From assembly GCA_964106645.2 (NCBI GenBank), contig OZ067041.1: a stretch of 64,000 bases of DNA. The stretch is one strand, 5' to 3'. A model generated the notes under the pieces. That model searched no databases. It saw nothing but the letters and a program-made list of their open reading frames with translations, and was not told where the DNA came from. The position numbers and the translations under genes were made by a program. Shown here piece after piece: positions 11,425 through 47,476 of this stretch; position 1 is the first letter of the stretch, and each line of letters opens with the position of its first letter. This DNA comes from Podarcis pityusensis. Lineage: Eukaryota.

Positions 11425-11560
11425 CAGGCATAGGCAAACTTGGCCCTCCAGATGTTTTGGGAATACAGCTCCCATCATCACCAACTAACAGGACCAGTGG
11501 TCAGGGATGATGGGAATTGTAGTCTCAAAACATCTGGAGGGCCGAGTTTGCCTATGCCTG
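11425..11560. mobile_element. hAT MITE (~135 bp, palindromic)
   Basis: TIR CAGGCATAGGCAAAC...GTTTGCCTATGCCTG; flanking TATAGAT duplicated. Confidence 0.9.
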
Positions 11561-11724
11561 TATAGATGCATGGCGGCCCAACTTTTCATACCAAGGGGGC
11601 CACAAGAGCACTTCCACATGGGTGGGCTGCACACTGCCTTGTTGTCCAAGGGAACAGCATGCCCAAAATTTGATACTCCCCCACAGCCCTTGTGCTGCCT
11701 TCCCAAAGCCAGCTAAGCAAGTTC

Positions 11725-19606: not shown

Positions 19607-19741
19607 CAGTGGTGGCCAAACTTGGCCCTCCAGCTGTTTTTGAACTACAACTCCCATCATCCCTAGCTAACAGGACCAGTGGCCAGGGATGTGGGAATTG
19701 TAGTCCAAAAACAGCTGGAGGGCCAAGTTTGGCCACCTCTG
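19607..19741. mobile_element. hAT MITE (~135 bp)
   Basis: Palindromic; perfect 8-bp TSD CTCTAAGA (19599-19606, 19742-19749). Confidence 0.92.
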
Positions 19742-19887
19742 CTCTAAGAGCTCACACCACATTTTCCCATGAGTGCTGGGTGGATTCCTGCCACAGTCTG
19801 AACAATTTATGTATTAGCACTTAGTTCCCAGGATTCTTTTGGGGAAGTCACGTGATTTAAATATGCAGTGTAGATCTGCTCTGGGAA

Positions 19888-20532
19888 TGTGATGGCCTGG
19901 GATTCAGACTTGGATGCTGAACCTGAGGGATCCCAGCCTGCACAGGATTCCCCGCCTCCAGAACCAGCTGAGCCAGGGCTGGGGCATGAGCCTGAAGGGT
20001 CCTCACCTGTGCTGGATCCTCAGGTGCAGGCATCAGCTGAGTCTGCTCCAGCTCCTGAGGTGATGGAGGACCCTTTGCCTGCAGGTGCTCCACTCTCAGC
20101 CCCATCAGAGGAAGCTGAGGTTGCCTCTGGGTCCAGTAACCCTCCAGCCTCTCCTGAGCTGCAGAGGCTCAGGGCAGAGAGGTGGAGGGAACTAAGTTCC
20201 CGCAGGAGGAGTGCTCGCCTCCAGGCCAGGAGAGGCGAGTCACCTGAGGATCGGGGCTGCCCTATGCCTCAGGGCAGATAAAAGCCGGCCAGCCCCAGTC
20301 CCAAGTTGCGGGAGCAAAATTGTTGGTTGCTAGTTTCTGCCTGAACCCTGTCCTGCTTTCCTGCCTGAGCTCCTGCCCTGCCCTGGCTCCCTGCTTGCAA
20401 GCCTGTTCATGACTTCACCCGACTCCCTGCCCTGCACCCAGCTTCAGCTATTTCGGACTGCCTCCACGTTGCACCTTTGACCACGGACCGGACTTGGACC
20501 TCGCCTCTTGGGTAACCCACGGGACAAGCACA
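19888..20532 (+). mobile_element. Solo LTR (645 bp; Gypsy-like or ERV, class not determined)
   Basis: TGTG...CACA termini, perfect 5-bp TSD GGGAA (19883-19887, 20533-20537), GC-rich, TATA-like GATAAAA at ~20277. Confidence 0.85.
19892..20281 (+). CDS. Putative LTR U3-encoded ORF: acidic Pro/Glu/Ala/Ser-rich with basic RRRSARL motif
   Basis: Open from the LTR start to a TAA inside the TATA-like box; the internal EPEGS repeat differs only at synonymous sites. Expression unknown. Confidence 0.4.
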   Translation: MAWDSDLDAEPEGSQPAQDSPPPEPAEPGLGHEPEGSSPVLDPQVQASAESAPAPEVMEDPLPAGAPLSAPSEEAEVASGSSNPPASPELQRLRAERWRELSSRRRSARLQARRGESPEDRGCPMPQGR

Positions 20533-37971: not shown

Positions 37972-38107
37972 CAGGCATAAGCAAACTTGGCCCTCCAGAT
38001 GTTTTGGGACTACAACTCCCATCATCCCTAGCTAACAGGACCAGTGGTCAGAGATGATGGGAATTGTAGTCTCAAAACATCTGGAGGGCCAAGTTTGCCT
38101 ATGCCTG
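37972..38107. mobile_element. hAT MITE, apparently nested in an older hAT-like remnant starting ~37890
   Basis: Perfect 8-bp TSD TTCTAAGC (37964-37971, 38108-38115). Confidence 0.92.
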
Positions 38108-38364
38108 TTCTAAGCCATACATCCTCCTCAGGTGACACCCTCAGTAGTTCTGCTCCATGCCCTCCTCAAGTGTTTGTGCCTCACTGGAATATATCCCTGA
38201 ACTGTAACAATGCTTTTTGCTTGCCTGGATTGAGGGTGTACATGGATGTGTGTATATATAAATACATACTGAGTTTTATGTGTCTGGGATTTTAGCTTGC
38301 TATTCAAAGGTACGAGTCACATCAGGTAGTATCATTCCATGAATGGAACAACTTCCACAACTTC

Positions 38365-47140: not shown

Positions 47141-47269
47141 CAGGCATAGGCAAACTTGGCTCTCCAGATGTTTTGGGACTGCAACTCCCATCATCCCTAG
47201 CTAACAGGACCAGGGATGATGGGAGTTGTAGTCCCAAAACATCTGGAGGGCCAAGTTTGCCTATGCCTG
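47141..47269. mobile_element. hAT MITE
   Basis: Perfect TIRs and 8-bp TSD ATTTTTCC (47133-47140, 47270-47277). Confidence 0.93.
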
Positions 47270-47476
47270 ATTTTTCCTATTAAATGTGTCCAATGCCTAA
47301 GTTTCAGACTCTGAACAGAGCAGTTAAAAGATCCTTGGATGGTCTACATGCTGGGGCCTCTTGTTTCATAAGAGAGTGGCATGTGTTGACCTTTAAGCCT
47401 GATCGCTCTAGTCAGAACAACTTTCTGCATGAAATAGCTAAGGAATGCATTTAGTCTGGGCTGTAGTACTGGCTAA

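Follow-up and report, generated by a model that had tools for sequence, protein, structure and literature searches.

The open reading frame that fills the U3 of a solo LTR in the lizard Podarcis pityusensis is almost certainly the C-terminal tail of a retrotransposon integrase: it is continuous with pol, and it is not a separate accessory gene. An earlier note on this DNA had offered two options, a chromatin-tethering accessory peptide spread through the genome by solo LTRs or an integrase tail running into the 3' LTR, and the second of these is shown directly by the full-length frames and the junctions between pol and LTR described here. Since the frame is the end of pol, and the U3 is copied from the 3' end of the RNA, every LTR carries it.

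The solo LTR and the frame in its U3

The window, that is, the whole stretch of 64,000 nucleotides analysed here (GenBank assembly GCA_964106645.2, contig OZ067041.1), holds a 645 bp LTR of an older subfamily to which we give the label W (Table 1). As the earlier note had read it, the element opens with TG (19888), closes with CA (20531-20532) and has GGGAA on both sides. The frame is open over 19874-20281, and from its ATG (19892) to its TAA (20279-20281, within the GATAAAA at 20277-20283) it runs for 129 codons and fills the U3, as had also been claimed, with RRRSARL at 20201-20221. In full-length elements the ATG is an internal Met. The stop codon falls inside the TATA-like box in subfamilies W, D and E; in subfamilies A, B and C it precedes the box by about 8 nt. 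R probably starts near 20308, and the frame would therefore lie wholly within U3. A MITE-like short inverted-repeat element adjoins the LTR at 19607-19743, with more copies in the window at 11425-11561, 37972-38108 and 47141-47277.

Table 1. Features of the solo LTR and its immediate flanks (positions in the window)
Feature	Position	Strand	Basis or remark
Left target-site duplication copy, GGGAA, 5 bp	19883-19887	.	exact duplicates at 21/30 closest copies
Solo LTR, Tf1/Sushi-group Ty3/Gypsy chromovirus, subfamily W	19888-20532	+	termini, copies, full-length relatives
U3 frame, 129 codons; in full-length elements the final part of pol (integrase C-terminal tail)	19892-20281	+	
Acidic Pro/Ser-rich linker, predicted disordered	19892-20149	+	first 24 codons constrained, middle near neutral
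Conserved basic block SPELQRLRAER..REL...RRSARL.AR	20150-20230	+	predicted helix, then motif
RRSARL, candidate HMGN/Dot5/Dsup-like arginine anchor	20204-20221	+	sequence; Anolis RRS[AL]RI; published motifs
TATA-like GATAAAA	20277-20283	+	31 nt upstream of inferred transcription start; same spacing in every subfamily with both elements located
GCGGGAGCAA, inferred start of R	20308-20317	+	complementary to primer-binding site of full-length copies (self-priming)
Right target-site duplication copy, GGGAA	20533-20537	.	read from sequence

Ahead of its last 40 residues the tail has a net charge of -19. The layout runs from integrase through SH3, chromodomain and acidic linker to a helix and RRSARL, the helix and the disorder being predictions of a low-confidence AlphaFold2 model of chromodomain plus tail (mean pLDDT 55) that was used for the rough layout only. 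Pfam assigned the 129-residue peptide to no family at E values up to 10, and HMG14_17 was not matched. Among 5000 dinucleotide shuffles of the ORF, RRSARL arose in 1 and RRSxRL in 12, and some frame was open from end to end in 728, so that the open frame alone is weak evidence. The earlier note had also pointed to an EPEGS repeat with two synonymous codings; these read as claimed, but the coding argument built on them carries little, and we rejected the repeat as coding evidence because it is absent from sister subfamilies.

Full-length relatives and read-through of pol

A search for a polypurine tract followed by an LTR gave 477 matches, many of them double-counted; 20 stretches were taken and 11 listed, two of these in part. 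The full-length elements are about 5.6 kb long, with LTRs 70-72% like that of the window. Four LTR pairs differ at 0-1 positions, one at 3 and one at 10, a further, wrongly delimited pair being left out; in a separate comparison L061 differs at 1 and L063 at 0. Because the pairs differ so little we take several subfamilies to be very young. Among the stretches listed, L061, L063, L064, L079 and L080 have a single 1623-codon frame ending in the tail, and L065 and L077 a 1270-codon pol frame with the same ending. On the protein P0001, Pfam recognised gag, a zinc knuckle (weak), protease, RT, RNase H, integrase, SH3 and chromodomain, in that order, and no env; the chromodomain (PF00385, residues 1437-1484, E 1e-14) has the group I aromatics Y, W and Y (EYEV…IDWKGY). 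In L061 and L063 the primer site is a 10-nt exact complement of GCGGGAGCAA, which lies 30 nt past the TATA-like box; this self-priming pairing is present in the predicted fold, the overall folding energy of which is no better than that of shuffles (z 0.47).

At 40 of 48 distinct polypurine-LTR junctions, a sample biased to young copies by the search pattern, the chromodomain is in frame with the tail; at the remaining 8, stops or frameshifts lie upstream. In W, the subfamily of the LTR in the window, the 7 best matches of window type from the pattern search for 3' junctions were without internal sequence upstream; a junction reached through gag-region matches, L134 on C19, has integrase, chromodomain, junction and window-type tail in one frame. 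Read-through of pol across the polypurine tract, which the earlier note had proposed to look for in full-length elements, is thus seen in the sister subfamilies and, at one junction, in W. The nearest named protein, from Podarcis muralis, has 90% identity across the chromodomain and the tail.

One truncated element is present at G000:C4:2.4-6.1 Mb (L091-L095) in five or more duplicated copies that have their flanks in common, and four of them have a 952-nt internal deletion that is also a joint in the RNA reads of a related species. G000:C19 (38 Mb, 2.5% of the genome), which may be a W chromosome, holds 15 of the 40 best gag-region matches.

Coding sequence in a U3 has precedents with which the present frame shares some features and not others. 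(i) The retroviral U3 genes nef and MMTV sag are separate genes overlapping U3; here too coding overlaps U3, but the frame is continuous with pol. (ii) Like the V-clade of the Tf1/Sushi group (Sushi-ichi, Amn), the element has the order Gag-PR-RT-RH-IN, no env, and SH3 plus a group I chromodomain (Y, W, Y), and it shares with the group TG…CA LTRs and a self-priming primer site (group features from the accessible parts of PMC6317226 and PMC3605345, the former describing the self-priming arrangement). In contrast to the group as described, Pol runs here for 116-129 codons through U3 to the HMGN-like motif. We found no description of such an extension in the accessible literature on the group, Repbase and older literature lying outside that scope, and the accessible part of PMC3601003 describes the ends of Sushi LTRs with no mention of U3 coding. 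(iii) That pol can extend into the 3' LTR is already known from plant CRM group A, where it encodes a targeting domain there (accessible parts of PMC3059260 and PMC3605345), and in this respect the two are alike. However, according to the accessible text of PMC6317226 the CR motif of CRM-A replaces the chromodomain, whereas the present element keeps a classical chromodomain upstream of the polypurine tract, adds in its LTR a disordered linker with a short motif, and groups with squamate elements.

Genomic copies, selection and RNA

Searching the 1.5-Gb genome at the DNA level yielded 2289 candidate copies, 40 of which were scored; 182 sites match the window's first 22 bases exactly. Among the 40 scored, the 30 closest loci have 94-95% identity, the window itself aside; 21 of these 30 have an exact 5-bp duplication, and neither a primer site nor a polypurine tract was seen beside any of them. 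Retention across copies, which the earlier note had proposed to check, held for the 129-codon frame (25 of the 29 closest loci other than the window) and failed for RRSARL, intact in 14 of the 29 and lost in 15. One young subfamily has RRSARF in place of RRSARL (6/10 C-type LTRs). At L062:1638-2235 a window-type LTR (84%) lies head to head with a young full-length element of a sister subfamily, about 1.4 kb away.

All selection tests use individual genomic copies. For this frame the counting method puts net ω at 0.43 (bootstrap 0.27-0.69) between subfamilies A and W, and ω among 36 W copies at 0.72 (0.52-1.00); ω is 1.0-1.5 in four of the five other frames and 0.47 in the reverse frame with shared wobble positions. 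Fixed differences are distributed 19/16/31 over the codon positions (p 0.015), with a third-position excess that is not significant against rare W variants (p 0.086). Likelihood estimates with transition bias allowed, for blocks picked after inspecting the alignment, favour constraint less; they were obtained under two models: 0.37 (p 0.024) and 0.47 (p 0.12) for the motif block alone, 0.44 (p 0.005) and 0.43 (p 0.013) for both ends of the tail together, and 1.06 and 0.82 for the acidic middle; the whole tail gave 0.83 (p 0.17) and 0.72 (p 0.10). A branch model found ω equal on lineage and aged terminal branches, and 24 solo W copies have ω of 0.95-2.3. Between lineages, then, the frame is kept and both of its ends are constrained (ω about 0.44), with an acidic middle near neutral, and solo copies show no selection. 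By the dN/dS test that the earlier note had proposed, the ratio is below 1 at the two ends between lineages; it is not significantly below 1 over the whole tail (0.72-0.83), and in solo copies it is about 1 or above.

Some of these results would also fit a reading that we consider improbable, in which read-through is tolerated, the tail is mostly a by-product and the conserved blocks are kept as promoter or attachment-site DNA of the U3. The seven lizard subfamilies do not differ at a single nucleotide of the five RRSAR codons, which lie about 60-75 nt upstream of the TATA box, and this genome alone therefore cannot separate protein from promoter constraint; whole-tail ω, as given, agrees with this reading, as do the frequency of such open frames at 62% GC (the 728 of 5000 shuffles) and their survival of 66-80 neutral substitutions in 14-18% of simulation trials, the motif itself surviving 66 substitutions in 15%. 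It does not account for the synonymous changes by which subfamilies differ at several codons within the block that holds the motif, nor for a coding U3 free of frameshifting indels, which are frequent downstream: 8 representative LTRs show 25 gap events past the stop, of which 17 are not multiples of 3, and in the coding U3 a single indel, 30 nt long. Nor does it account for a protein motif common to Anolis at the same position from the end.

RNA from a related species, for which tissue and library chemistry are not given, provides a weak line of evidence: four runs, two of them bulk, of which 6-12% each was read and mapped on a young element. In the bulk runs the internal region has a depth of 0-4, mostly on one strand, with coverage that carries on through the chromodomain; depth over the LTR is greater and comes from both strands. 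Since reads join the first base of the LTR to varied non-element sequence, some solo U3s are part of host transcripts. Reads most like the window's U3 lie mostly on the strand opposite to the internal-region reads (27.6 vs 0.55 and 21.8 vs 3.7 in the two bulk runs), and the unique flanks of the window locus have zero depth in both, in a species that may lack this insertion. The one long joint matches the genomic deletion seen on C4, and no splice joint into the tail was listed at this low depth.

These data bear as well on the other option of the earlier note, a stand-alone accessory peptide in the manner of nef or sag, produced from a spliced or read-through transcript and dispersed with the solo LTRs, which we regard as very improbable. 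Although the ATG stands at LTR position 5 in nearly all copies, with a Met at the same Anolis position, it overlaps the terminal TGTGATG attachment sequence; although RNA reads do join the LTR start to varied other sequence, the window-like reads lie mainly on the opposite strand, the flanks have none, and a splice joint into the tail is missing from those listed; and although the Podarcis gene models P0209, P0226 and P0271 start at the LTR's ATG, the solo copies show no selection and about half have lost the motif. In the host genome a solo copy of the frame is a passenger, upstream of the LTR's own inferred start site. In the three predicted proteins the LTR's ATG is joined to family-3 GPCR-like sequence or to gag, and they are probably gene-prediction artefacts. 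The integrase-tail identity of the frame explains this recurring annotation trap: the many solo LTRs offer gene predictors an open frame with an ATG, which is then spliced onto other sequences.

The RRSARL motif and a possible nucleosome tether

Among 120 Pols, RRSxR follows the chromodomain in 6: Podarcis, two Anolis clusters (366 and 94 members), two frog Pols (RRSPRL) and the ENA record P0262. RRSxR[LI] occurs 5 times in the 169,773 residues of 119 Pols, 4 of these within the last 35 residues. In 16 of the 17 Anolis Pols with a full tail, RRS[AL]RI lies 7-8 residues from the end, in tails with a mean identity of 66% and a lowest of 45%; three Anolis Pols that were compared have 91-98% identity in their other domains. 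The window's tail is 22-27% identical to those of Anolis, RT, RH, IN and chromodomain being about 65% identical, and its alignment with Anolis P0155 over about 90 residues is better than 2000 of 2000 shuffles; of eight alignments of the lizard tail with others, one beats shuffles at p<0.01 and 6 of the other 7 are not significant at 0.05. Judged by these alignments, Anolis Pols end in a tail that is homologous to the lizard's. It probably lies in U3 there as well, since G-D-S-V-M in Anolis parallels the G-D-G-V-M of this lizard at the LTR junction.

In the integrase tree, Podarcis, Anolis, Rhineura, P0048 and a second Gypsy family of this genome form one clade (support 99/96, L177 dropped) that sits among vertebrate and fungal chromoviruses, in a tree without named references such as Sushi-ichi and Amn. 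In the clade members Rhineura P0241 and P0048 and in the second family the tails are likewise acidic, but their basic ends are different; as read from these tails, the motif is common to two squamate lineages, which split well over 100 million years ago, and not to the whole clade. A profile search found RRSxR in the tail of 1 of 145 further chromodomain proteins. The tail of P0262 ends in RRSARLAAAH, and RRSxR is present in the tails of 3 of its 53 neighbours, which are mostly fern, fungal or without organism name; its motif is probably independent. The frog tails belong to another clade (shuffle p about 0.01, weak). RGRP words, which we take to be AT-hook-like, occur after the chromodomain in fish (P0021, P0055, P0339) and in Rhineura (P0241), and vertebrate chromoviruses in general may tend to place short chromatin-binding motifs behind the chromodomain.

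The main rival for the function of the motif accepts the integrase tail and takes its basic end for a nuclear import signal or a patch binding DNA or RNA non-specifically, the HMGN likeness being incidental; we consider it unlikely, yet clearly less so than the readings set aside above. Yeast Ty1 and Ty3 integrases carry C-terminal import signals, Arg-rich ends are common in chromoviruses generally, many fungal, fern, fish and frog Pols ending in varied short stretches of this kind, and the sister family of this genome ends in other basic words such as RRESRRRL and WKRFKKR. Left unexplained are the fixed R-R-S-x-R-[LI] in the 16 Anolis tails, at identities down to 45%, and the confinement of variation to the position at which HMGN has A and Dsup has S.

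The HMGN-like reading gains support from this conservation in Anolis, as far as sequence comparison goes. RRSARL(Q/K)A has 7 of the 8 letters of the RRSARLSA of HMGN1/2/5, with the core RRSAR complete; Anolis RRSARIAA has 7 of the 8 letters of the RRSARIAT of yeast Dot5; and the motif would lie, as in tardigrade Dsup, in a disordered chain near the C-terminus. In contrast to HMGN, the tail has no HMG14_17 match, its acidic part precedes the motif instead of following it, and it is fused to an integrase. According to the accessible part of PMC12487698, what is resolved on the nucleosome acidic patch is RRSAR in HMGN2 and RRSSR in Dsup, and AlphaFold 3 does not succeed even with HMGN2. In Dot5, binding to nucleosomes depends on RRSARIAT (bioRxiv 10.64898/2026.01.14.699602, accessible part).

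We lean slightly towards a tether on the integrase made of chromodomain and arginine anchor, with RRSARL docking on the nucleosome acidic patch. Pol reads through the polypurine tract into U3, and its tail is thereby copied into every LTR. On the mature integrase the tail would be retained, the chromodomain with its aromatic cage would recognise methylated H3, and RRSARL, held on a flexible acidic linker about 90 residues long, would dock on H2A/H2B as an HMGN-type arginine anchor; anchor and chromodomain would jointly tether the integration complex to nucleosomes. The RRSARF of one young subfamily and the squamate clade members without the motif count against the anchor, as may a promoter constraint on the invariant RRSAR codons. 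Several retroelement tethers are known, among them MLV IN-BET, the foamy virus Gag chromatin-binding sequence and Ty5 IN-Sir4. As in MLV IN-BET, HIV IN-LEDGF and Ty5 IN-Sir4, a short C-terminal motif would steer integration; unlike in foamy virus, where it is on Gag, the putative anchor is here on integrase. To our knowledge, the integration-site choice of vertebrate Gypsy elements has been little studied, and the ends of their pol are usually read only to the chromodomain. No retrotransposon integrase with an HMGN-like motif came to light in the accessible, openly searchable literature, a scope outside which subscription papers, Repbase notes and supplements fall.

In the second Gypsy family of this genome (L154-L179, L145; for example G000:C9:52740018-52743203 and G000:C19:8440370-8443555) pol also reads into the 3' LTR. 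Among its 30 loci there are 18 open tails; the read-through junction is seen in 15 of them, and an acidic FxGF in all 18, 17 having two copies (DEEDFVGF, DEEEFEGF, EEEIFLGF). By eye, its chromodomain appears to be without two of the three cage aromatics. LEDGF/p75 is a cofactor used by HIV integrase. FxGF binds the integrase-binding domain of LEDGF/p75 (bioRxiv 10.1101/624023, accessible part), and our search of the accessible literature found no report of this motif on retrotransposons. It is possible, if short of probable, that squamate chromoviruses carry host-mimicking motifs on their integrase tails as exchangeable tethers, a chromodomain with an HMGN-type anchor here and in Anolis and an LEDGF/p75-type FxGF in the second family.

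If RRSARL binds the acidic patch, a retrotransposon integrase would join the short list of working HMGN-type anchors. If the tether is real, these elements would hold a natural two-point nucleosome reader, recognising a histone mark and the acidic patch, and a short peptide would be enough to put it to the test.
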